DNA from: Dictyostelium discoideum
Lineage: Eukaryota
Length of the DNA: 64,000 nt
Assembly: GCA_000004695.1 (NCBI GenBank)
Contig: CM000150.2
Location: 480,001-544,000, forward strand
Reading direction: 5' to 3'
The notes below the pieces were generated by a model. That model was not told where the DNA came from and made no database searches. It saw only the letters and a list, made by a program, of their open reading frames with translations. The translations under genes and the position numbers were made by a program. Below are positions 13,510-38,100 of this stretch, one piece after another (within the stretch, counting starts at the first letter, position 1; the number at the start of each line of letters is the position of its first letter).

Positions 13510-14666
13510 CATTACAATTATTAAATTTTAAAATATTATTAAATAATCAAAATTTAATTAATAAATTAATGGAGGTAATGGTAAAGAGGTTAAGTGGTAA
13601 TTTAAGTATACCAAATGTGTTTATTAGAAATTGGGTAAAGTTATCAGTTGGTTCAGTGATTGTATTCTTTGGTATTAAATATTCTTATGATAATTTCGAT
13701 TCATTCAAACAATCTGCATTCGATATTAGGGATGCATTCATTAGATTCTATCATGAGCATTTGGAAGAGCCTCTATTGAATATTTGGAATGTGATTAGAT
13801 ACGATAAGAAGTCACTGCAATTGGCAGACCCTGCATCATTGCAATCTTCAATTGACTCATTGGGCAGAATGGTTATCGACTATAATATAGACAGAAACCA
13901 TCTCGATATCAATTCAACCGAAACTAGACAACACCTATTCCAATTGGCATCGCGTGGTGACATTTCATCCATTATGAAATCCTACGAATCTAATATCAGA
14001 TCGCCATTACAGAATATCCTATTCGGCGATATGATTAGATTAATATTAATTCAAATTCAAAAGGAGAAAGTTGACGTAGACAAAGCAATGGTTGCAATCG
14101 ATAAGTTACTCCAAGCCAACGAACTAAACTTCCAATTGCTCGCTGCTATACCCTCTGCTATCTTTTTGGCTTTATTAATTTGGCAAATTAAAAAGTTATT
14201 CACTAATCAAAAGAAAACTTTACCCTATTCACAATTAGTAATCTTTCAAACTTTAAGAAAAATTAATCGTACTTTAATTTTAAATAATACTCAAGATCAA
14301 CAAAATAATAATTTACCAAATTTCATTTCACCATTATTATTAACTCAAATTAATATTTTAAATTATTCAACAATTATTAATAATCAAGATAATAATAATA
14401 ATATTAATAATATTAATAATAATAATAATAATAATAATAATCAATTAATTAAAACTCAATTTAAACCATTTGAAAAATATGGTACAATTTTAATTTCAAC
14501 AAATAAATTAAGAAGTCATCAAAGATTTGTTAGAGAAAATACTGAAAGTCAATGGTTTAATCAAGATGTTCATGATTTAGAATCTGAGGCTTTATCAAAT
14601 CAAGATAAAATTCAAACTATAAATAGAATGTTTCAAACTTATTCTTTTTTAAAGAATATTAAATAA
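11895..14666 (+). CDS. Hypothetical 923-aa protein with long poly-Q/poly-N tracts and a conserved C-terminal domain ending in a hydrophobic segment
   Basis: Single long ORF from ATG 11895. Contains a (CAA)29 poly-Q tract and a complex C-terminal region (...[29 protein letters not shown]...[19 protein letters not shown]...). A weak resemblance to NCA2-type proteins is speculative. Confidence 0.55.
13425..13508 (+). repeat. (CAA)n microsatellite encoding a poly-Q of about 29 residues inside the 11895..14666 CDS
   Basis: Uninterrupted caa repeats seen directly in the sequence. Confidence 0.9.
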
Positions 14667-15056
14667 TAGAATAATAAAAAAATAAAAAAATTATAAAAAA
14701 ATTAAAAAATTACAATTGTAATGTTTCGATGTCACGTCACACGCATGGGTAATAAAATTATTTTTTTTAATTTTTTTTTTTTTTTCCCAAAAATAAATTT
14801 TTAAATACACAGTCACCATTTTGTTTTAATAATATCGGTGTGGTTTGAGTCAAATTAAAAAAAAAATAAAAAAAAATATTATTTTTTTTTATTTTTTTAT
14901 TTTTAATTTTTTTTTTCTTTTTTTTTTTTTTTTTTTTTTTTTTTTGGTTTTTTTAAAAAACAGTAATAACACATTCAAAAATATAAGATATTTTATATAT
15001 GTAGTTAATTAAAAACTACAGAATTTCGAATATATATTTATATATTTATATATTTT

Positions 15057-15087
<31 letters not shown>

Positions 15088-15109
15088 ATTTTCTTTTTCT
15101 GTATAAAAA

Positions 15110-18317
<3,208 letters not shown>

Positions 18318-18394
18318 AATAAAATAAAATAAAATAAAAATAAAATAAAAATAATAATAACAATAATAATAATATATTTTTAAAAATTTATTTA

Positions 18395-18480
18395 TTTATT
18401 TAATTTATTTAATTTATTTAATTTATTTAATTTATTTAATTTATTTATTTATTTTATTTATTTTTTATTTATTTAATTTA
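18395..18480. repeat. Minisatellite, about 9 copies of tttatttaa, between the convergent 3' ends of ireA and the ankyrin-kinase gene
   Basis: atttatttaatttatttaatttatttaa... seen directly. Lies in the 200-bp gap between the two stop codons. Confidence 0.7.
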
Positions 18481-18515
18481 TTTTTATATTTATTTATTTT
18501 TTTTTTTTTTTTTTT

Positions 18516-20338
18516 TTATTCATCAACTCCTATAAAACCTTTAGCATAATTAATTTTTAATTTTTCATTATAAACAAAAGGACTTACAAATGTTGAGTCT
18601 TTTGATTCTTTGTATTTTTTTTCAATCATTTTAGCTATTTTATGTTGTCTAATAACTTGATCAGAATAATCATCATCAATGTTTATCTTATTGAAAATTG
18701 AATTCCATTTTTCTTTTTTTGAATGGTAGATTGATTCCATTTCACTTAATTTTTCAAAAGCTTCACATGCACTTGGACGATCATAATCATTATGACTAAG
18801 CATTGAATAGATTAAATCACTTATTGGCAATGGAATTGAATCATGTAAAATTGGTCTAAGGAAATTGCGGACTCCATTATTTATTTGGGAATTTTCCCTA
18901 AGATTTCCAAAAGGATAAATATATTTCACTCCAATATATGGTATTGATGCACAAATTTCAAATAAAACAACACCCAATGCGAAAATATCAGTTTTAGTAT
19001 TTGCAACACTGTTGGAGGTGGCTTCAGGTGGTTGAAAACTTGATGTTCCAGCAAATTTCCTTAAGGTCTCTAGGTTTTCTGTTGAAAAAAAACGTGCAGT
19101 ACCAAAATCACAAACTTTAATTAAACCATTATCATTTACCAAAAAATTTTTAGATTTTAAATCTCTGTGAATTAAAGGACCATTTGGATTGGTGTGGATA
19201 TCATAAGCGCAATGAACCACACCAAAGGCATACCTAAAGAATTGATCAAATGATGTCATCTTTTCATTTCTTAAAACATCAAATAGAGTACCCTTTGAAC
19301 AATACTCTAAGAATAGGAATAAAGATTTTTCTTTATAGAAATAACCATATAAACCAACTGTTGATGGAGTTTGTGATAAGGACATTGATTCAACTTCTTT
19401 AACCACTTCATCTTTATTTGATTTATTTACTTCGCACTTTTTAACAGCACAGACTTTTTTTCATCTCCAATGGTATAATTTAATTTATAAACTTCACCAA
19501 ATGATCCTCTACCAATAAAATCGGTTAAAAGAGTACTATTAAAAGATTCAAATTGAAGGCATTTCTGTAATGGTGGTGCATCCTTTCCTTCAATCAATGG
19601 TTGAATTCTTGACATATTAACTGGAAAATAATGAAGTAAAAAACTATTAAATGATGGTGATTTTATAATATTCATTGAACGAATACCTAAAATTTCAAAC
19701 AATACAAATGTTCGAGCATGACAAAGGACCATAAAATTAGTAAAGGTTTTGATGATATTACTAATTTCAGTAACCATAATTAATAATGGACCATTTTTAT
19801 AAATCTCTTTCATCTTCATACCTGGGTCCCTCTTGATTGAACTATTTTTATCTTCAAGATATGGTTTTGCACCAAAAGCTAAAAGAATTTTGATAATATT
19901 TTCATCTTTAAGTTTTATTGCTAAATGAAGTGGAACAGATAATCTATTATTTCTTATGTTTGGATCTGCTCCACAAACCAATAATGCTGCAATAACTGGG
20001 GCACTTTCTGATTTTAAAGTTTTTAAGGCAATGTGAATTGCTGTATTACCATTATAGTATTGATAATTTAAATCAACATTCATTGCGGAGAGTTTACAAA
20101 AAAATGTAACATAATTTTTAAATAATTCAATTTTAGTTTGTTTTTCATCAAAGATTTTATTCCATTCCGATTCCATACTACTATTTGAATTACCCAATAT
20201 TGATGAGATTGATGGTAATGATTTTGGATTGATAATTGAATAATAAAGTATATTTGACTTTAAACTAGTTAAATTATATAAGTATCACAATATAAAATTA
20301 ATAAATAATATATTTATGTGTAATAAAATATTATATAG

Positions 20339-20388
<50 letters not shown>

Positions 20389-20958
20389 ATTATAAAAATA
20401 ATAATAATTATAAAAATAATAATAATAAACTTACTTTTCATTTTTATAAAAAACTTCTTGCAATAAATCAAGTTTTTCAATCAAAACTAATAAACTATTC
20501 AATTTATTGACGTCAGTTATTTTATCAATTGTTTCTCTAATTAAGTTAATAAATCCTTTGATAAAAACTGGGTTGAATCTGTTTTGATTTGAAATCAATA
20601 AATTGATTGCTTCTAATTCCAATCCATTTAAATAGTAGGTTTTAAATTTTTTAAATAATACCAATAGATTTAAATCTTTCTTAAATTCTTCCATTTTTTC
20701 ATTTTCCTTAAAAGATATTAATTTTCCATTAACTTTCACACCATTATCTTTTGTTTTTATATTGGTTTTATGAGTGATTTTAAATTTTTTTTTTTTATAA
20801 ATTATATAATCTTCAAACATATTTAAATCATCTGTTTTAGAACCAATAATTATCTGATCTTCATTAAAAGTTTCCTTTGGAGGAATTATTGACTTTAACT
20901 TGGATTTTAAATTATTTATACTTTTTTTTAATTCAAATTTATTTTTATCTTGATTTTC

Positions 20959-21033
<75 letters not shown>

Positions 21034-21192
21034 TTCATTATTATTATTTTGATTTTCCTTATTATTTTTATTATTATTAATTATATTTTGATTTTCATTA
21101 TTATTAATATTTTGACTATCATTATTATTTATATTTTGATTTTCATTATTATTTATATTTTGATTTTCATTATTATTTATATTTTGATTTTC

Positions 21193-21264
<72 letters not shown>

Positions 21265-21319
21265 ATTATTTTTATTATTAATATTATTTTTATTATTTTT
21301 ATTATTATTATTATTATTG

Positions 21320-21381
<62 letters not shown>

Positions 21382-21561
21382 ATTATTATTATTAATTCCA
21401 ATTATACTTTCATTTTTTTTTTTGTCTGGATCTATTACTAAACATTGGAGTAATATTTTTGATGAGATGAAATTATTTAATAATTCATAATTTTGGAAAT
21501 TTACCAAATTACCAAATTTTTTTTGGAAATTTTGGAAATCTTTTTCAATTTCCTTTTGCAT
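18516..21561 (-). CDS. N-rich ankyrin-repeat protein kinase (TKL-like), merged model complement(join(18516..20264,20435..21561)); a -1 frameshift in an A7 run at 19455..19461 breaks the kinase domain in this assembly
   Basis: ORF 20431..21561 ends ...EVFYKNE-AA|GTAAGT. After a 170-nt AT-rich intron ending AACTAG, the frame continues without a stop (NLKSNILYYSIINPKSLPSISSILGNSNSSMESEW...) into the ankyrin repeats (GNTAIHIALK..., SVPLHLAIKLKDENIIKILLAFGAKP). Kinase subdomains follow: GRGSFGEVY, VCAVKK (only if one extra A is present in the A7 run), HRDLKSKNFLV, DFGTAR. Confidence 0.6.
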
Positions 21562-21578
21562 TTTACTTTTTTTTTTTA

Positions 21579-21639
<61 letters not shown>

Positions 21640-23525: not shown

Positions 23526-23985
23526 GTTTGGGAGTGTTAGTGTGCTATATTTTATTTGTTTTTTCAATTTTTTTTATTTAAAATAAAGTTAATGTTTTTG
23601 ATTTTTTTCAATATTTTTTTTGTCTAAATTTGGGGAAGTGGGTGTTTTTTCAAATAGTTATTGTTTTATGAGTGTTTTTAAGTGGTTGAGTGTGATGTAA
23701 TTTTTAATTTTTGTTATTTTAAAAAAATACAAATTGTTTTTGATAGTGTGTTGGTATGTGTTTTTATTTATTGTGTGTTTTTATTTGTTAAAATAAATAA
23801 AAAAAAAAAATAAAACATAATTTTTAATTTATTTTTTATTTTCATTTGTCAATATTAAAATTTACCAGTATAATAATTTATTATTTTTATCATTCTTGAA
23901 GACAGGAAAAAATAAAAAATTAATTATTTCTTTTATTATTTATTAAAAAAATAAAAAACTAAATCTGATTTTAAATAGTTTTACA

Positions 23986-26744
23986 ATGGAGAAAAAATTA
24001 TTAATAATAGTTATCATCTTTTTATTTTCAATTATCCAAGTATTTTGTAGAATTGATTCTAGTATGTATTAAACAAAAAAAAAAAACCAAAGTTTTAATA
24101 ATTTTTTAAAAAACATATTGTATTAATAATAAAAAACTTTAAATGAAAAATAGAAACATTTGTAATTTCAAATGAAACATTCCTATCATACCATTTTCCA
24201 GTTGGTAGTGAATATTTTTCATCATTAAATTTTGAACTTTTAGTAGGGCCATCATTTCAATTGGATTTTTAATGTATTACTTTCAATAGTACATTTTGTT
24301 TTTCAAAAATTGATCAAGAAAATAAAAAACAATTGTATGGTAAATCCATTACCTACTCAACACAAGAAACCTATGATTTGGATAAAAAAAGGCTACCAAC
24401 TCCAATAGTTTCTTCACCTTTCCAAAAACCAACAAAAGGTGGAACCTCAATTTTAAAAGGTACTTATTTAACATTTTTTGAAAAAAATTATTATGAAGTT
24501 ATCTACCCAGAAAAACAAACAATTGATATTTTGAATTCAAAATCATTATAATTCGATGCAACAAATGTTAAAGTTAATTGTCCACCTGGTTGTGGTTATC
24601 AAATAATTAAATGTGAGAATGGTAAATTATTTAATTTTAGTTATTCAAATCCATCAGTATTTGATTATAAAATAAATTCATCAAATATTATTGTAAATGG
24701 ATCTGATTTTTGTGATAGTTCTTATTCTTCAAATATTACAATTGATGGTGTTATCATTCCAAATTCAAATTATCAAAAAGATGAAGACTCAATTGTAATT
24801 ATTTATACTCAACAACATACAACCAAATCATTAATGAAAATAGAAACAAGCAATGTAACATCTGTTGAAATTGAAATTGTTTTTAAATCAGAACCATTAA
24901 TAATAAATTCAATTCCATATAGTAAAGGTGGTTTAATTATTTTAGAAGGTTTAAGATTATCTTCAAATACAAATAAAAACAATAATAACAATATAATTAT
25001 TAAAATTGGAAATACAACATGTTCAAATGCAATTTCAATATCAAATGAATCAATCACATGTAATTTAAATCCGGGTATAAATAAATCAGTTACTTTAAAT
25101 AATTTACCAGTTTCAGTTACAATTAATAATATTACAAATGAAAATACATTATTATTTAATTATGGTATGGTCAAATTAAATCCAAATAAATATAGTTTAC
25201 CAGATCGTGTTTTACAATTAAATGGTGATTGTCTCGGAAATTCAAATAGTACTATTGTTTATTTAAATGGAAAAGAAACATTATTAAATGATTTAAAAAT
25301 AAATAACCAAGAAACAACTTTATCATTTAAAATACCAGATGAATTTAAATCAAAATTAAATGTTTCAATCAAGGTAAATGATATTTTATCAAATGAAATT
25401 CAAATTGATATTTCATTTTATGCAAGTCATTCAAATGAACAACCAAGTACAAATGGTAAAACAAATATTATATTCACATTATATAATATTAAATCTGAAA
25501 ATTATAATAAAATACCATCAATTATTATAATTCCTGAACAAATTGTAATAAATGGTGTTTCAGTAAATTCACCAACCAATCAAGATGTTCATTCGTATTC
25601 ATTTTTAATTCCAGCTGGGTGTGGTAAAAAAGATATTCAAATTATAATTGGTAGTCAATCATGTTTGTCATCAATTACATACTTTGAACCAATTATTAAA
25701 AATTGTTTAGTATCAGGTTTTGATGGTACAAATGGAAATATAATTTGTGATGGTAGTTTTGGTAATAAAGATTATTTAATTAAATCATCTGTACTATTTT
25801 CAAATGATGAAATTGTACCACCATCAATCAATAGTACAACATTTTCGTTCCCTCTAATATCAGGTTATCACAGTGATGATTTAATTTTTCAAATGTGCGG
25901 TGTTCAAAGTAAACCATTTAAATTAAACATCTCACCATCATTAAAAGGAATCAATCACAGTCAAATGGAAACATTAGGTGGTAAATTTTACATTCTTGGT
26001 GAATTCTTTAGTGCAAATATAAATTGTAGTGTATTTTGCAATGATAAAGAATATGAAAAACATTTTGAAAACTCAAAGACGATTTCATTCGATTTACAAA
26101 TTCCAGGTCCAAATGATATTACATGTAATTATACATTTGATAATGGAAAAAATACTGGTGATTTTAAGATTGAATATCCTTTACCATTAATAGAAAATAC
26201 GAGCTCAATAAATGTAAATGGTGGAAATTTAACAATTTATGGTAAAAACTTTTATAATATTTCAAATATCAAAGTTGAAGTTGATAATCAATTAAAATGT
26301 AATAATATTGAATTTATTAATTTAAATAGTTTAACCTGTTTCTTACCACCATTTAATGAAACAAGAAAACAACCATTATTTAATGATCAAAAACTATTAT
26401 TAAATTCATCAACAACTATTTTTAGCAAAAAATTATTATTAAATGTTACATTTGAAAGTAAAACATGGAGTGGATATATTTTTCAATATTCAAAAGAAGA
26501 AATAAAAAATAATGGTACAAGTGAAAATTCAACCAATGATATTTTAAATCATGAAAAAAATAATAATAATCAGAAAGATGGAAGTAGTTTAAGTAAAAAA
26601 AGTATAATATTATTATCAATATTATTACCTGGTTTTATTATTTTAATAGTTTCTTTAACAATTGTTATTCTTGTAATTAAAAAAAATAAAACAAAACATA
26701 GTAAAAATATGTCACCAAAAGAGAAAGAATTAATGAAACAATAA
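23986..26744 (+). pseudogene. tgr-like IPT/TIG membrane glycoprotein, array copy 1, pseudogene: in-frame TAA at 24270..24272 and 24549..24551, plus a Trp-to-Cys change
   Basis: Same exon structure as copies 2-4 (exon 1 23986..24061, exon 2 from 24154). LDFECIT is replaced by LDF*CIT (gaa to taa) and SLSFDAT by SL*FDAT (tca to taa). IKWENG is replaced by IKCENG. The distal 636 codons (24834..26744) remain open. Confidence 0.75.
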
Positions 26745-27059
26745 TAGTAGCAATAAAAATAATTTAATAATTATTAAATTATTAATTTATTATTTATATT
26801 TAATAATTAATATTATTTGTAATAGGGAAATGGGCATCTTCAAATATTTTTTATTTCTCTGATCATAAATTTGAACCTGACCGATTTTTTTCCAAATTTC
26901 AATTTCACATTCTCCCAACTCAACAAAAAGATATTACTTAAAAAACTATAAAATTATATCGAATAACAATTTTTAAAAAATAGTAATAATAAAAAAAAAA
27001 AAGAAACATTCAATAATAATAATGATTGAAAAGATGTTTTTAAATTGTTGATTGTTTAG

Positions 27060-27137
27060 AAGTTTGTATTTTTTTTTGAAAATCCAATTTTAACTTTAAA
27101 ATACAATTTAATGTTTTTGATAGTGTGTTTTTTATTT

Positions 27138-27171
<34 letters not shown>

Positions 27172-27660
27172 AATGTGTGTTAGTGTACTATGTTTTATTA
27201 GTTATGTGAGTTTGTTGTGTTTTTTCAATTTATTCTATTTAAAATAAAGATAATGTTTTCGATAGTGTGTTATTTTTCAATATTTGTCTAAGTTTGGAGA
27301 AGTGGGTGTTTTTTTCAAATAATTATTGTTTTATGAGTGTTTTTAAGTGGTTAAGTGTGATGAAATTTTTTATTTTTTGTTATTTTAAAAAAATACAAAG
27401 TGTTTTTGATAGTGTGTTAGTGTGTGTTTTTATTTAATTTATTTTTATTCAATTTTTTTAATTATTTTTTAATATTGTATAAATAAATAATAAAAAAAAA
27501 TAAAACATTATAATTTTTAATTTATTTTTTATTTTCATTTGTCAATATTAAAATTTACCAGTATAATAATTTATTATTTTTATCATTCACCAACAAATAA
27601 TAAAAAAAATTAATTATTTGTTTTAAAATATTAAAAAATTAAATCTGATTTTAAATAATT
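27060..27660 (+). promoter_or_regulatory. Conserved 5' module of the tandem units, present at about 23460..23985, 27060..27665, 30740..31340 and 34600..35176, containing repeated GT-rich boxes (putative G-box/GBF-type developmental elements)
   Basis: Blocks such as ggagaagtgggtgttttttt, gtttttgatagtgtgttagtgtgtgttttt and gtggttaagtgtgatg recur in the same order before each copy, embedded in otherwise A/T-only DNA. The TTTTGATAGTGTG motif occurs about three times per unit. Confidence 0.35.
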
Positions 27661-27665
27661 TTACA

Positions 27666-30414
27666 ATGGAGAAAAAATTACTAATAATAGTTATCGTCTT
27701 TTTATTTTCAACTATCCAAGTATTTTGTAGAATTGATGATAGTATGTATAAAACAAAAAAACAAAACTTTATCATTTTTCAAAAAACATATTGTATTAAT
27801 AAATGAAAACTTTAAATGAAAAATAGAAACATTTGTAATTTCAAATGAAACATACCTATCATACCATTTTCCTGTTGATAGTGAATACTTTTCATCATTA
27901 AATTTTGAACATTATGAAGGACCATCATTTCAATTGGATTTTGAATGTATTACTTTCAATGGCACAATTTGTTTTTCACAAATTTATCCAGAAATTAAAA
28001 AAAAAATTTATGGTACGTCAATTTCATATTCAACACAAAAAACATACAAATTAGATCAAGAATTGTTTCCAACTCCAATAGTTTCCTCACCTTTCCAACC
28101 TCCAACAAAAGGTGGAATCTCAATTTTAAAAGGTACTTTTTTAACATTTTCGGAAAAAACCTTTTATCAAGTTATCTACCCAAAAAAGCAAAAGATTTTT
28201 ATTTTAGATTCAGAATCGTTATCGTTCGATGCAACAAATTTTAAAGTTAATTGTCCACCTGGTTGTGGTTATCAAATAATTAAATGGGATAATGGTAATT
28301 TATTTAATTTTAGTTATTCAAATCCATCAATATCGGTTGTTAAAATAAATCCATCAAATATTATTGTAAATGGATCTGATTTTTGTGATAGTTCTTATTC
28401 TTCAAATATTACAATTGATGGAGTTATCATTCCAAATTCAAATTATGAAAAAGATGAAGACTCAATTGTAATTATTTATACTCAACAACACACAATCAAA
28501 TCATTAATGAAAATTGAAACAAGCAATGTAACATCTGTTGAAATTGAAATTGTTTTTAAACCAGAACCTTTATTAATAAACTCGGTTCCATATAGTAAAG
28601 GTGGTTTATTAATTTTAGAAGGTTTAAGATTATCTTCAAATACAACAAATAAAAATAATAACAATAATAATATAATTATTAAAATTGGAAATATTACATG
28701 TTCAAACGCAATTTCAATCTCAAATGATTCAATCACATGTAATTTAAATCCGGGTTTTAATAATAAATCAGTTACTTTAAATAATTTACCAGTTTCAGTT
28801 ACAATTAACAATATTACAAATGAAAATAAATTATTATTTAATTATGGCATCGTTAAATTAAATCCAAATAAATATAGTTTACCAGATCGTGTTTTACAAT
28901 TAAATGGTGATTGTCTCGGAAATTCAAATGGTACTATAGTTTATTTAAATGGAAAAGAAACATTATTAAATGATTTAAAAATAAATAACCAAGAAACAAC
29001 TTTATCATTTAAAATACCAGATGAATTTAAATCAAAATTAAATGTTTCAATCAAGGTAAATGATATTTTATCAAATGAAATTCAAATTGATATTTCATTT
29101 TATGCAAGTCATTCAAATGAACAACCAAGTACAAATGGTAATACAAATATTATATTCACATTATATAATATTAAATCTGAAAATTATAATAAAATACCAT
29201 CAATTATTATAATTCCTGAACAAATTGTAATAAATGGTGTTTCAGTAAATTCACCAACCAATCAAGATGTTCATTCGTATTCATTTTTAATTCCAGCTGG
29301 GTGTGGTAAAAAAGATATTCAAATTATAATTGGTAGTCAATCATGTTTGTCATCAATTACATACTTTGAACCAATTATTAAAAATTGTTTAGTATCAGGT
29401 TTTGATGGTACAAATGGAAATATAATTTGTGATGGTAGTTTTGGTAATAAAGATTATTTAATTAAATCATCTGTACTATTTTCAAATGATGAAATTATAC
29501 CACCATCAATCAATAGTACAACATTTTCGTTCCCGCTTATATCAGGTTATCACAGTGATGATTTAATTTTTCAAATGTGTGGTGTTCAAAGTAAACCATT
29601 TAAATTAAACATCTCACCATCATTAAAAGGAATCAATCAAAGTCAAATGGAAACATTAGGTGGTAAATTTTACATTCTTGGTGAATTCTTTAGTGCAAAT
29701 ATAAATTGTAGTGTATTTTGCAATGATAAAGAATATGAAAAAAAATTTGAAAACTCAAAGACGATTTCATTCGATTTACAAATTCCAGGTCCAAATGATA
29801 TTACATGTAATTATACATTTGATAATGGAAAAAATACTGGTGATTTTAAGATTGAATATCCTTTACCATTAATAGAAAATACGAGTTCAATAAATGTAAA
29901 TGGTGGAAATTTAACAATTTATGGTAAAAACTTTTATAATGTTTCAAATATCAAAGTTGAAGTTGATAATCAATTAAAATGTAATAAAATTGAATTTATT
30001 AATTTAAATAGTTTAACCTGTTTCTTACCACCATTTATTGAAACATTATTTAATGATCAAAAACTATTATTAAATTCATCAACAACTATTTTTAGTAAAA
30101 AATTATTATTAAATGTTACATTTGAAAGTAAAACATGGAGTGGATATATTTTTCAATATTCAAAAGAAGAAATAAAAAATAATGATACAAGTGAAAATTC
30201 AACCAATGATATTTTAAATCATGAAAAAAATAATAATAATCAGAAAGATGGAAGTAGTTTAAGTAAAAAAAGTATAATATTATTATCAATATTATTACCT
30301 AGTTTTATTATTTTAATAGTTTCTTTGGCAATTGTTATTCTTGTAATTAAAAGAAATAAAACAAAACATAGTAAAAATATGTCATCAAAAGAGAAAGAAT
30401 TAATGAAACAATAA
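27666..30414 (+). CDS. tgr-like IPT/TIG type-I membrane glycoprotein, array copy 2, join(27666..27741,27827..30414)
   Basis: Signal peptide MEKKLLIIVIVFLFSTIQVFC in exon 1 (GTATGT...ATAG intron, phase 1). At least three IPT/TIG-like modules (e.g. PYSKGGLLILEGLRLSS...IIIKIGNITCSNAISISNDSITCNLNPG; YPLPLIENTSSINVNGGNLTIYGKNFYNVSNIKVEVDNQLKC...LTCFLPPF). More than 50 N-x-S/T sequons. C-terminal TM SIILLSILLPSFIILIVSLAIVILVI with a short basic tail. Lacks 4 aa (FIETLFNDQ) relative to copies 1, 3 and 4 (FNETRKQPLFNDQ). Confidence 0.8.
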
Positions 30415-30807
30415 TAGTAGCAATAAAAATAATTTAATAATTATTAAATTATTAATTTATTATTTACATTTAATAATTAATATTATTTGTAATAGGGAAA
30501 TGGGCATCTTCAAATATTTTTTATTTCTCTGATCATAAATTTGGACCTGACCGATTTTTTTCCAAATTTCAATTTCACATTCTCCCAACTCAACAAAAAG
30601 ATATTACTTAAAAAACTATAAAATTATATCAAATAACAATTTTTAAAAAATAGTGATAATAAAAAAAAAAAAGAAACATTCAATAATAATAATAATTGAA
30701 AAGATGTTTTTAAATTGTTGATTGTTTAGAAGTTTGTATTTTTTTTTGAAAATCCAATTTTAACTTTAAAATACAATTTAATGTTTTTGATAGTGTGTTT
30801 TTTATTT

Positions 30808-30840
<33 letters not shown>

Positions 30841-31340
30841 AATGTGTGTTAGTGTACTATGTTTTATTAGTTATGTGAGTTTGTTGTGTTTTTTCAATTT
30901 ATTCTATTTAAAATAAAGATAATGTTTTCGATAGTGTGTTATTTTTCAATATATTTTTGTTGTCTAAGTTTGGAGAAGTGGGTGTTTTTTTCAAATAATT
31001 ATTGTTTTATGAGTGTTTTTAAGTGGTTAAGTGTGATGAAATTTTTTATTTTTTGTTATTTTAAAAAAATACAAAGTGTTTTTGATTGTGTGTTAGTGTG
31101 TGTTTTTATTTAATTTATTTTTATTCAATTTTTTTAATTATTTTTTAATTTTGTATAAATAAATAATAAAAAAAATAAAACATAATAATTTTTAATTTAT
31201 TTTTTATTTTCATTTGTCAATATTAAAATTTACCAGTATAATAATTTATTATTTTTATCATTCACCAACAAATAATAAAAAAAATTAATTATTTGTTTTA
31301 AAATATTAAAAAATTAAATCTGATTTTAAATAATTTTACA

Positions 31341-34098
31341 ATGGAGAAAAAATTACTAATAATAGTTATCGTCTTTTTATTTTCAACTATCCAAGTATTT
31401 TGTAGAATTGATGATAGTATGTATAAAACAAAAAAACAAAACTTTATCATTTTTCAAAAAACATATTTTATTAATAAATGAAAACTTTAAATGAAAAATA
31501 GAAACATTTGTAATTTCAAATGAAACATACCTATCATACCATTTTCCTGTTGGTAGTGAATACTTTTCATCATTAAATTTTGAACATTATGAAGGACCAT
31601 CATTTCAATTGGATTTTGAATGTATTACTGGCAATGGTACAGTTTGTTTTTCACAAATTTATCCAGAAATTAAAAAAAAATTTTATGGTACGTCAATTTC
31701 ATATTCAACACAAAAAACATACAAATTAGATCATGAATTGTTTCCCACTCCAATAGTTTCCTCACCTTTCCGACCACCAACAAAAGGTGGAATCTCAATT
31801 TTAAAAGGTACTTATTTAACATTTTCTGAAAGACTTTCCTATTATGAAGTTATCTACCCAAAAAAACAAAAGATTGTGATTTCAGATTCAGAATCATTAT
31901 CATTCGATGCAACAAACGTTAAAGTTAATTGTCCACCTGGTTGTGGTTATCAAATAATTAAATGGGAGAATGGCCAATTATTTAATTTTAGTTATTCAAA
32001 TCCATCAGTATTTGATTATAAAATAAATCCATCAAATATTATTGTAAATGGATCTGATTTTTGTGATAGTTCTTATTCTTCAAATATTACAATTGATGGT
32101 GTTATCATTCTAAATTCAAACTACCAAAAAGATGAAGACTCAATTGTAATTATTTATACTCAACAACACACGACCAAATCATTAATGAAAATTGAAACTA
32201 GCAATGTAACTTCTGTTGAAATTGAAATTGTTTTTAAACCAGAACCATTAATTATAAATTCAATTCCATATATTAAAGGTGGTTTAATTATTTTAGAAGG
32301 TTCAAGATTATCTTCAAATACAAATAAAAACAATAATAATAATATAATTATTAAAATTGGAAATATTACATGTTCAAACGCAATTTCAATCTCAAATGAA
32401 TCAATCACATGTAATTTAAATCCGGGTATATATAATAAATCAGTTCCCTTAAATAATTTACCAGTTTCAGTTACAATTAACAATATTACAAATGAAAATA
32501 CATTATTATTTAATTATGGTATGGTCAAATTAAATCCAAATAAATATAGTTTACCAGATCGTGTTTTACAATTAAATGGTGATTGTCTTGGAAATTCAAA
32601 TAGTACCATAGTTTATTTAAATGGAAAAGAAACATTATTAAATGATTTAAAAATAAATAACCAAGAAACAACTTTATCATTTAAAATACCAGATGAATTT
32701 AAATCAAAATTAAATGTTTCAATCAAGGTAAATGATATTTTATCAAATGAAATTCAAATTGATATTTCATTTTATGCAAGTTATTCTAATGAACAACCAA
32801 GTACAAATGGTAATACAAATATAATATTCACATTATATAATATTAAATCTGAAAATTATAATAAAATACCATCAATTATTATAATTCCTGAACAAATTGT
32901 AATAAATGGTGTTTCAGTAAATTCACCAACCAATCAAGATGTTCATTCGTATTCATTTTTAATTCCAGCTGGGTGTGGTAAAAAAGATATTCAAATTATA
33001 ATTGGTAGTCAATCATGTTTGTCATCAATTACATACTTTGAACCAATTATTAAAAATTGTTTAGTATCAGGTTTTGATGGTACAAATGGAAATATAATTT
33101 GTGATGGTAGTTTTGGTAATAAAGATTATTTAATTAAATCATCTGTACTTTTTTCAAATGATGAAATTGTACCACCATCAATCAATAGTACAACATTTTC
33201 GTTCCCACTAATATCAGGTTATCACAGTGATGATTTAATTTTTCAAATGTGCGGTGTTCAAAGTAAACCATTTAAATTAAACATCGCACCATCTTTGAAA
33301 AGAATCGATCAAAGTCAAATGGAAACATTGGGTGGTAAATTTTACATTCTTGGCGAATTCTTTGGTGTAAATATAAATTGTAGTGTATTTTGCAATGATA
33401 AAGAATATGAAAAAAAATTTGAAAACTCAAAGACGATTTCATTCGATTTACAAATTCCAGGTCCAAATGATATTACATGTAATTATACATTTGATAATGG
33501 AAAAAATACTGGTGATTTTAAGATTGAATATCCTTTACCATTAATAGAAAATACGAGTTCAATAAATGTAAATGGTGGAAATTTAACAATTTATGGTAAA
33601 AACTTTTATAATGTTTCAAATATCAAAGTTGAAGTTGATAATCAACTAAAATGTAATAATTTTGAATTTATTAATTTAAATAGTTTAACCTGTTTCTTAC
33701 CACCATTTAATGAAACAAGAAAACAATCATTATTTAATGATCAAAAACTATTATTAAATTCATCAACAACTATTTTTAGCAAAAAATTATTATTAAATGT
33801 TACATTTGAAAGTAAAACATGGAGTGGATATATTTTTCAATATTCAAAAGAAGAAATAAAAAATAATGATACAAGTGAAAATTCAACCAATGATATTTTA
33901 AATCATGAAAAAAATAATAATAATAATCAGAAAGATGGAAGTAGTTTAAGTAAAAAAAGTATAATATTATCAATATTATTACCTGGTTTTATTATTTTAG
34001 TAGTTTCTTTAACAATTGTTATTATTGTAATTAAAAGAAATAAAACAAAACATAGTAAAAATATGTCATCAAAAGAGAAAGAATTAATGAAACAATAA
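31341..34098 (+). CDS. tgr-like IPT/TIG type-I membrane glycoprotein, array copy 3, join(31341..31416,31502..34098)
   Basis: Same architecture as copy 2. Intact ORF with scattered substitutions clustered in the N-terminal domain. One-residue shorter TM (SIILSILLPG...). Confidence 0.8.
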
Positions 34099-35176
34099 TA
34101 GTAGCAATAAAAATAATTTAATAATTATTAAATTATTAAATTATTATTTATATTTAATAATTAATATTATTTGTAATAGGGAAATGGATGTATCTTCAAA
34201 ATATTTTTTATTTCTCTGATCATAAATTTGAACCTGACCGATTTTTTTCCAAATTTCAATTTCACATTCTCCCAACTCAACAAAAAGATATTACTTAAAA
34301 AACGATAAAATTATATCAAATAACAATTTTTAAAAAATAGTAATAAAAAAAAAAAAATTAAAAAGAAACATTCAATAATAATAAAAATTAAAAAAAATGT
34401 TTTTAAATTGTTGATTGTTTAGAAGTTTGTATTTTTTTTTGAAAATCCAATTTTAACTTTGGAGAAGTGGGTGTGTTTTTAATTTTTTTTTTTTGTAAAT
34501 CTAATTATAACTTAGGAGAAGTGGGTGTTTTTTTTTTTTTTTTTTTTTATGAAAGTGTGTTAATGTGTGATGTTTTGATTTGTTAAATGATTTTTTCTCT
34601 TTTAATTCAATTTGTTTTTTTTTAAAATACAATTTAATGTTTTTGATAGTGTGCATTTTTTATTTGTTTTTTTTTTTTTTTTTTTTGGAATGTGTGTTAG
34701 TGTACTATGTTTTATAAGTTATGTGAGTTTGTTGTGTTTTTTCAATTTATTTTATTTAAAATAAAGATAATGTTTTCGATAGTGTGTTATTTTTCAATAT
34801 ATTTTTGTTATCTGAGTTTGAAGAAGTGGGTGTTTTTTCAAATAATTATTGTTTTATGAGTGTTTTTAAGTGGTTAAGTGTGATGAAATTTTTTATTTTT
34901 GTTATTTTAAAAAAAAATACAAAGTTTTTTTGATAGTGTGTTAGTGTGTGTTTATTTAATGTATTTTTATTCAATTTTTTTAATTATTTTTTAATTATAT
35001 TTGAATAAATAATAAAAAAAATAAAACATTAAAATATTTAATTTTTTTTTTTTTTTCATTTGTCAATATTAAAATTTACCAGTATAATTTATTATTTTTA
35101 CCATTCACCAATAAAAAAAAAAATTATTATTTATTTTAAAAATAAAAAACTAAATCTGATTTTAAATAGTTTTACA

Positions 35177-38100
35177 ATGGAGAAAAAATTATTAATAATA
35201 GTTATCATCTTTTTATTTTCAACTATCCAAGTATTTTGTCAAATTGATTATAGTATGTATAAAACAAAAAAACAAACTTTTAATAATTTTTTAAAATATA
35301 TTGTATTAATAATTGAAAACTTTAAATTAAAAATAGAAACATTTGTAATTTCAAATGAAACATACCTATCATACCATTTTCCAGTTGGTAGTGAATATTT
35401 TTCATCATTAAATTTTGAACGTTTCGTAGGTCCATCATTTCAACTGGATTTTGAATGTATTACTTTCAATGGTACAGTTTGTTTTTCTCAAATTAATCAA
35501 GAAAATAAAAAACAATTGTATGGTACATCCATTACCTATACAACAAAAGTAACTATTAGTTTGTATAAGAATAACCTTCCAACTCCAATAGTTTCTTCAC
35601 CTTTCCAACCTCCAACAAAAGGTGGAATCTCAATTTTAAAAGGTACCTATTTAACATTTTCTGAAAGACTTTCCTATTATGAAGTTATCTACCCAAAAAA
35701 ACAAAAGATTGTGATTTCAGATTCAGAATCATTATCATTCGATGCAACAAACGTTAAAGTTAATTGTCCACCTGGTTGTGGTTATCAAATAATTAAATGG
35801 GAGAATGGCCAATTATTTAATTTTAGTTATTCAAATCCATCAGTATTTGATTATAAAATAAATCCATCAAATATTATTGTAAATGGATCTGATTTTTGTG
35901 ATAGTTCTTATTCTTCAAATATTACAATTGATGGTGTTATCATTCCAAATTCAAACTACCAAAAAGATGAAGACTCAATTGTAATTATTTATATTCAACA
36001 ACACACAACCAAATCATTATTGAAAATAGAAACAAGCAATGTAACATCTGTTGAAATTGAAATTGTTTTTAAACCAGAACCATTAATTATAAATTCAATT
36101 CCATATAGTAAAGGTGGTTTAATTATTTTAGATGGTTCAAGATTATCTTCAAATACAAATAAAAACAATAATAATATAATTATTAAAATTGGAAATATTA
36201 CATGTTCAAACGCAATTTCAATCTCAAATGAATCAATCACATGTAATTTAAATCCGGGTATATATAATAAATCAGTTGCCTTAAATAATTTACCAGTTTC
36301 AGTTACAATTAATAATATTACAAATGGAAATACATTATTATTTAATTATGGTATGGTCAAATTAAATCCAAATAAATATAGTTTACCAGATCGTATTTTA
36401 CAATTAAATGGTGATTGTCTCGGAAATTCAAATAGTACTATTGTTTATTTAAATGGAAAAGAAACATTATTAAATGATTTAAAAATAAATAACCAAGAAA
36501 CAACTTTATCATTTAAAATACCAGATGAATTTAAATCAAAATTAAATGTTTCAATCAAGGTAAATGATATTTTATCAAATGAAATTCAAATTGATATTTC
36601 ATTTTATGCAAGTCATTCTAATGAACAACCAAGTACAAATGGTAATACAAATATTATATTCACATTATATAATATTAAATCTGAAAATTATAATAAAATA
36701 CCATCGATTATAATTATTCCTGAACAAATTGTTATTAATGGTGTTTCAGTAAATTCACCAACCAACCAAGATGTTCATTTGTATTCATTTTTAATTCCAG
36801 CTGGGTGTGGTAAAAAAGATATTCAAATTATAATTGGTAGTCAATCATGTTTGTCATCAATTACATACTTTGAACCAATTATTAAAAATTGTTTAGTATC
36901 AGGTTTTGATGGTACAAATGGAAATATAATTTGTGATGGTAGTTTTGGTAATAAAGATTATTTAATTAAATCATCTGTACTTTTTTCAAATGATGAAATT
37001 GTACCACCATCAATCAATAGTACAACATTTTCGTTCCCTCTAATATCAGGTTATCACAGTGATGATTTAATTTTTCAAATGTGCGGTGTTCAAAGTAAAC
37101 CATTTAAATTAAACATCTCACCATCATTAAAAAGAATCAATCAAAGTCAAATGGAAACATTGGGTGGTAAATTTTACATTCTTGGTGAATTCTTTAGTGC
37201 AAATATAAATTGTAGTGTATTTTGCAATGATAAAGAATATGAAAAACATTTTGAAAACTCAAAGACGATTTCATTCGATTTACAAATTCCAGGTCCAAAT
37301 GATATTACATGTAATTATACATTTGATAATGGAAAAAATACTGGTGATTTTAAGATTGAATATCCTTTACCATTAATAGAAAATACGAGTTCAATAAATG
37401 TGAATGGTGGAAATTTAACAATTTATGGTAAAAACTTTTATAATGTTTCAAATATCAAAGTTGAAGTTGATAATCAATTAAAATGTAATAATATTGAATT
37501 TATTAATTTAAACAGTTTAACCTGTTTCTTACCACCATTTAATGAAACAAGAGAGCAATCATTATTTAATGATCAAAAACTATTATTAAATTCATCAACA
37601 ACTATTTTTAGCAAAAAATTATTATTAAATGTTACATTTGAAAGTAAAACATGGAGTGGATATATTTTTCAATATTCAAAAGAAGAAATAAAAAATAATG
37701 GTACAAGTGAAAATTCAAGTAATGATATAATAGATCATGAAAAAAACAATAATACTACAAAAAATGGTAAAGGCGGTATCAATTTAAGTAAAGAAAGTAA
37801 AATAATAATTTCTGTAGTCTTACCTGGTGTTATTATTTTAATAATTTTATCGGTAGTAGTAATCTATCGTATTAGAATAAATAGAATTACACGAAATACA
37901 TATGTGAAAAAAATTAATGAAATGAAAACAATAACACCAGAAGAGAAACGAGATGAAATAGATGAATCAGATGAAATTAAAAAAAAACTTGATATTGAAA
38001 TGTCAGAATTAAGATCCAATCTATTCATACACTCAATCAGTTATACTAACACACTCAAAGAACAACAAATGGAAAGGGATCAAATCAATAAAAGTCCAAG

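Follow-up and report, generated by a model that had tools for sequence, protein, structure and literature searches.

A broken ankyrin-repeat kinase gene in laboratory Dictyostelium discoideum: probably a recent, lineage-specific pseudogene

Is the protein kinase gene that is interrupted at a run of seven adenines on chromosome 1 of Dictyostelium discoideum AX4 truly inactivated in this strain, or is the run miscounted in the reference sequence? The window analysed here (the whole stretch of 64,000 nt, contig CM000150.2, positions 480,001 to 544,000) is very AT-rich and contains poly-Asn tracts. Two of its single-exon ORFs match the AX4 proteins DDB_G0267656 and DDB_G0267660 exactly, and the convergent neighbour of the kinase gene is ireA (16152-18317). 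An earlier note, made from the sequence alone, had proposed that the run splits the kinase domain and had named two possible causes, a sequencing error or a genuine strain-specific inactivation. The explanation that very probably applies is that this is a real, recent and lineage-specific pseudogene: one A would have been lost in the laboratory (NC4-derived) lineage, and the locus would be polymorphic within the species.

The kinase gene and its interrupted frame

The run is T7 on the plus strand (C-TTTTTTT-C, window 19455-19461) and A7 on the coding (minus) strand, which reads GGA GAT GAA AAA AAG TCT GTG CTG TTA AAA AGT GCG AAG TAA across it. In the zero frame, translation with A7 gives ...GRGSFGEVYKLNYTIGDEKKSVLLKSAK (in longer form, ...TDFIGRGSFGEVYKLNYTIGDEKKSVLLKSAK) and ends at a premature TAA (19429-19427). 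Both the sequence and its reading frames bear out the proposal that the run breaks the kinase frame. The stop had been placed 12 codons on, which holds when counting from the D of DEKK; it lies nine codons after the run itself. The -1 frame reads KKVCAVKKCEVNKSNKDEVVKEVESMSLSQ... and is open for 296 codons to 18516. This ORF alone matches the Pkinase profile (E-value: 4.6e-35), beginning at profile position 46. An open frame of this length with a kinase match is not a chance event.

The gene that contains the run has two exons (21561..18516, minus strand); its protein has a poly-Asn N-terminus, followed by ankyrin repeats and then a protein kinase domain. Exon 1 (20435..21561) starts with an ATG at 21561, encodes the poly-Asn-rich N-terminal region and ends in phase 2 before GTAAGT; a 376-codon ORF (21561..20431) ends at this canonical donor and joins the exon 2 ORF in phase. 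The intron (20265..20434) is 170 nt long, has the form GTAAGT...CTAG, has a GC content of 5.9% and contains an A47 tract. The annotated proteins of two other assemblies, ACTFIY and ACTFIR, share this junction. Exon 2 (18516..20264) encodes the ankyrin repeats and the kinase domain, is broken by the frameshift and has its normal stop at 18518-18516. The extension of the gene through the intron to 21561 was missing from the earlier note, as was its prior publication (discussed below).

If one A is added and the 170-nt intron is removed, the spliced coding sequence is 2877 nt (958 codons) with no further stop. The product has the conserved domain PF00069 (Pkinase; E-value: 1.2e-42), covering profile positions 6-259 of 263 and crossing the A run. 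An eighth A therefore restores the beta3 lysine motif and the frame through HRDLKSKN and DFG, as had been claimed. The motifs of this product are GRGSFG at residue 627, CAVK at 648, HRDLKSKN at 742, DFG at 762 and PPE at 788. The split in the catalytic domain (approximately 18753..19519) separates the Gly-rich loop GRGSFG from the beta3 lysine of CAVK. Upstream of the frameshift, the ankyrin repeat region (approximately 19853..20083, residues 62-138 of the exon 2 product) matches PF00023 and PF12796 (Ank E-value: 5e-10, Ank_2 E-value: 1.9e-6). A search against solved structures found a generic kinase fold relationship only (NEK1, CTR1, PDK1, ZAK and Aurora; E-values of approximately 1e-22).

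With A7, GRGSFG lies in one frame and the remaining catalytic motifs lie in another, with a stop between them; they are found on one polypeptide only in the A8 allele described below (P0001). This frameshift is the sole lesion in 958 codons, and all of the catalytic motifs are whole in the repaired frame. As expected of an unprocessed, polymorphic pseudogene, the disabling mutation lies in an otherwise conserved coding region, after the Gly loop and before the beta3 lysine. Translation of the A7 allele would end nine codons past the run to give a product of approximately 654 aa, which would keep the ankyrin repeats and the Gly-rich loop and would be without the beta3 lysine, the catalytic loop and DFG. 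According to established kinase biochemistry, a product that lacks these elements cannot be a kinase, and the A7 allele is predicted from its sequence to be a loss-of-function allele.

Intact alleles and the direction of the change

A homolog search with the repaired exon 2 product returned P0001, a 553-aa protein encoded in Logan assemblies made from public read sets. The two proteins are 100% identical by BLASTP rounding, and direct comparison shows a single substitution. P0001 is carried by five Logan contigs from two SRA series (SRR26869256/57 and SRR28564540/41/43). These contigs are 99.9% identical to the window and are genomic, since the intron is partly included; their ends lie in the A47 tract and in an A22 tract that follows the stop codon. 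They show exactly two differences from the window: an eighth A at the run, and position 19318 (minus strand), at which the window has TTC (Phe) and the five contigs have TAC (Tyr). Comparison with other isolates, which the earlier note had recommended, thus shows that other D. discoideum read sets have A8 on a haplotype with one further SNP. Tyr is found at 19318 in all of the relatives (P0002, P0003 and the ACTFIR protein) and is the ancestral residue.

The direction of the change is indicated by more distant sequences. The ACTFIR assembly (labelled D. discoideum, approximately 87% nucleotide identity here) has A8 and an intact gene of 1085 aa whose intron is at the same position. ACTFIY (D. 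cf. discoideum, approximately 85% identical and syntenic) has GAAGAAAAAATG at the site, which is equivalent in length to A8, and its exon 2 is intact. In the AX4 paralog DDB_G0267566 the homologous site (GTAGAAAAACAT) is likewise of A8-equivalent length. Because ACTFIR, ACTFIY and the paralog all have A8 or its equivalent length, the allele of the AX4 lineage is a one-base deletion. Intact counterparts of the gene are therefore present both in conspecifics and in relatives (the five read-set assemblies, ACTFIR and ACTFIY exon 2).

A8 would thus be the ancestral form of the run in the kinase domain and would have become A7 in the D. discoideum laboratory lineage (AX4, presumably AX2 and probably the parent NC4), with replication slippage as the likely cause of the loss. 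The one-base deletion in an A:T run agrees with the mutation spectrum of D. discoideum. In mutation-accumulation lines of this species, indels arise at 2x the rate of substitutions, deletions are 4.5x as frequent as insertions, and repeat-associated indels occur mainly in A:T homopolymers (PMC7466956). The run sits in a weakly constrained, Dictyostelium-specific ankyrin-repeat kinase. Comparison of exon 2 between the window and ACTFIY gives a dN/dS of 0.54 (dS 0.23, dN 0.13), with pN < pS (z = 3.7), which indicates purifying selection that is real but weak. The locus resembles the polymorphic unitary pseudogenes that arise by homopolymer indels in many species, in which there is likewise a single disabling indel, functional alleles persist and the ORF is otherwise undecayed.

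ACTFIY carries an independent lesion in this sibling lineage, an 11-nt deletion in exon 1 that shifts the frame (L006:7700-8080 compared with window 20560-20900). Its annotation splits the orthologous kinase gene into genes of 256 aa and 643 aa. This exon 1 lesion suggests that the kinase family tolerates damage.

A second assembly and the competing explanations

The reference and the five Logan contigs cannot by themselves separate a reference error from a polymorphism, because at both differences, which are approximately 140 nt apart, it is the reference that has the derived state. A second assembly of the locus is available in GCA_054883475.1 (CM142508.1, locus tag ACTFIT), which was reached through a tgr-like neighbour and covers window 13911-36748 (L012). 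It has T7 at the site and the linked TTC codon, as in the window. Over window 13911-21610 there are no mismatches, and the differences consist of long homopolymers and one intergenic insertion. Across all 22.8 kb only 10 differences separate the two sequences. Seven of them are changes purely of length in long homopolymer tracts; one deletion and one substitution fall within a single interrupted T-rich tract; the remainder are an intergenic insertion of one base and an isolated substitution. Of the homopolymers of 6-13 nt, 193 of 193 agree over the 22.8 kb (among them 45 of 7 nt and 17 of 8 nt), whereas 8 of the 16 tracts of at least 14 nt differ in length. The combination of concordant short runs and differing long tracts shows that the second assembly is not a copy of the reference and is accurate at the length class of the A7 run.

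The tracts of at least 14 nt that differ are always shorter in GCA_054883475.1 (for example, A25 for the A47 of the intron). The differing long tracts are at window positions 14942, 15063, 18497, 20339, 21581, 23468 and 27139. The cause may be true instability of such long tracts or a miscount by one of the technologies.

The ACTFI* assemblies were built de novo from Nanopore and Illumina reads and represent nine wild isolates, chosen to be divergent, and the laboratory strain AX2-214 (Holland et al., PNAS 2025, PMC12745789). GCA_054883475.1 is probably AX2-214, as among the strains listed in that paper only AX2-214 can be nearly identical to AX4. If so, the A7 allele is shared by two laboratory strains. 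AX2 and AX3/AX4 were derived separately from NC4, and the deletion is therefore placed in NC4 or in very early laboratory history; it was presumably already present in NC4.

It is improbable that the laboratory strain truly has A8 (possibly with TAC at 19318) and that the Sanger reference of 2005 miscounted the homopolymer. Such an error would fit a gene whose remainder is flawless, and two derived differences this close together could reflect a locally poor stretch of the reference, a reading that is contradicted by the second assembly only. There is also precedent, since four other kinase frameshifts in this genome proved to be errors (Goldberg et al. 2006, PMC1420674). That study checked individual genome reads where frameshifts blocked gene models and corrected the four genes, but having inspected the reads its authors retained the present locus as a pseudogene. 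More directly, both A7 and TTC are found in an independent de novo assembly that agrees with the reference at every homopolymer of 6-13 nt and departs from it at the long tracts. The protein collection holds only A8-form exon 2 products for this locus; exact look-ups in it found neither the A7-type ORFs (249, 289, 296 and 654 aa) nor an A8 form with Phe. The missing A7 ORFs are uninformative because AX4 is absent from the gene-position index, in which no laboratory-strain read sets are evident, and because poly-Asn-rich proteins seem to be absent from the collection. Of the two causes named in the earlier note, error is thus disfavoured, and genuine inactivation is supported by the A7 run and linked Phe codon of the second assembly.

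Two further explanations would leave the gene functional. The less credible, which can be given almost no weight, is that a 26-nt GT...AG intron (19437-19412) removes the stop and restores the frame. Excision of exactly this segment (GTGCGAAG...ATAAAG, 19412..19437, minus strand) does yield the annotated 949-aa product of GCA_054883475.1 (L012:4593-7616), and it is the sole GT-AG removal that gives 949 aa. At 26 nt and 27% GC, however, it is unlike Dictyostelium introns, which are typically 60-250 nt long with a GC content below 15% (PMC1420674), and unlike the real 170-nt intron of the same gene. Since the frameshift precedes the segment that is removed, the 949-aa product reads the beta3 segment as SVLLK rather than VCAVKK. 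It also lacks KCEVNKSNK, a stretch that the A8 contigs and ACTFIR conserve and that is similar in ACTFIY. The 26-nt intron is rejected on the basis of its length, its GC content and these conserved coding residues. The annotation of GCA_054883475.1 thus appears to use an artificial intron to mask the frameshift, a practice of gene predictors that is described by Goldberg et al. (2006, PMC1420674).

Functional recoding is also very unlikely, though less so than the short intron. According to this explanation, the A7 allele still yields full-length kinase, either by -1 ribosomal slippage on A AAA AAG or from transcripts in which RNA polymerase has added an A, making the gene leaky or tunable. 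A heptamer of the X XXY YYZ type is indeed present in the correct zero frame (19460-19454, minus strand), a -1 slip or an A8 transcript would give exactly the protein of the intact allele, and the gene shows no other decay. The programmed -1 frameshift of E. coli dnaX uses an identical A AAA AAG heptamer in the zero frame, and here too a -1 shift would give a functional product. Unlike dnaX, the present site is eukaryotic, has no downstream structure and is not conserved in its arrangement. The minimum free energy of the 100 nt downstream (-11.4 kcal/mol) does not differ from the mean of shuffled sequences (-11.47 kcal/mol; z = 0.03), and the A8 contigs, ACTFIR, ACTFIY and the paralog all encode the kinase in a single frame. 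Neither the comparison of the downstream fold with shuffles nor the frames of the relatives thus supports programmed frameshifting. In eukaryotes, ribosomes slip poorly when AAG occupies the A site, and A7 runs seldom cause slippage, such that any rescue would amount to a small percentage at best. The heptamer is judged to be incidental, and the likeness to dnaX is best read as a by-product of the deletion of one A from A8. It is similarly doubtful, to the point of speculation, that A7 is a leaky, contingency-like allele and that natural populations keep both A7 and A8 as an on/off switch that can be reversed. The A7/A8 polymorphism lies approximately 2 kb from a tgr-like gene array that varies in copy number (described below).

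Prior record, relatives and neighbourhood

Loss of one A in the laboratory lineage, the explanation preferred here, concerns a gene that is already in the literature. DDB0216536_ps is listed in Table S2 of Goldberg et al. (2006, PLoS Genet 2:e38, PMC1420674) as a 'pseudogene' in the class Other/Other-Unique, with the quality 'kd' and the motifs CAVK, HRDLKSKN and DFG. The 399 N-terminal residues stored in that table are identical to the spliced model, including the splice junction. DDB0216536_ps is thus the same object as the locus in the window and does not differ from it. Goldberg et al. (2006, PMC1420674, Table S2 and Fig. 6) recorded 15 ePK pseudogenes in the Dictyostelium kinome, each defined by a frameshift or stop in a conserved region. 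The same study found that gene predictors had hidden kinase lesions by means of false introns or truncations, and 9 of the 15 gave an EST or RT-PCR signal. What is new beyond the 2006 record is the direction of the change (one A lost from A8), its reproduction in a second assembly and the intact A8 alleles in other D. discoideum samples. A literature search on the five SRR accessions, DDB0216536 and DDB_G0267566 found no match.

This is an ordinary, recent gene loss at the level of the strain, catalogued since 2006, and its significance goes little beyond bookkeeping. The lesion is most probably a genuine allele of the laboratory lineage and not a reference error, and the intact allele appears still to segregate in D. 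discoideum. Laboratory strains would therefore lack a kinase that is present in some wild strains, which could matter when the phenotypes of laboratory and wild strains are compared. The annotated 949-aa 'protein' is without the catalytic lysine and is unfit for use as a kinase sequence.

The closest AX4 paralog found is DDB_G0267566 (UniProt Q1ZXR2), which is encoded on the same chromosome, has the same order of ankyrin repeats followed by a kinase domain and is 54% identical over exon 2. It shares the beta3 context (EKHCAVKE) with the same spacing. It differs from the present gene in being intact (annotated as 844 aa) and in having neither a long poly-Asn N-terminus nor an A8 run at the homologous position. 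The D. firmibasis protein RB653_010032 (P0004) is 325 aa long and consists of an ankyrin region and a remnant of the kinase C-lobe (...DIHSLGVVLFELCASIPYIG...); it may be another degenerate member of a small ankyrin-kinase family.

Among JGI metagenome contigs there were no matches to the site in either its A7 or its A8 form. AX4 IreA (984 aa) and the ACTFIR kinase (1085 aa), which both have long poly-Asn tracts, were not found in the protein collection, including by a homolog search with IreA. Negative conclusions drawn from that collection are limited accordingly, as poly-Asn proteins seem to be missing from it.

ACTFIR and ACTFIW, both of which are labelled D. discoideum, have only approximately 86-92% nucleotide identity to the window (L007 and L008), compared with 99.9% for the Logan contigs. 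According to the source paper, tropical isolates are genetically distant (PMC12745789), with which this divergence is consistent. In ACTFIY, the part of the ireA kinase/RNase exon that adjoins the kinase gene is limited to its last 83 codons (L006:10216-11366 compared with window 15232-18341). The ACTFIY locus is without approximately 1.9 kb, including the IreA kinase domain, an absence that may reflect either true deletion or collapse of the assembly.

Four tandem tgr-like genes (Ig_TgrO1) with approximately 90-94% mutual identity are located just upstream of the kinase gene (window 23800-37900). A search with the tgr-like protein returned no read-set contigs. The number of tgr-like copies is four in both the window and GCA_054883475.1 (L012), two in ACTFIW and one in ACTFIR.
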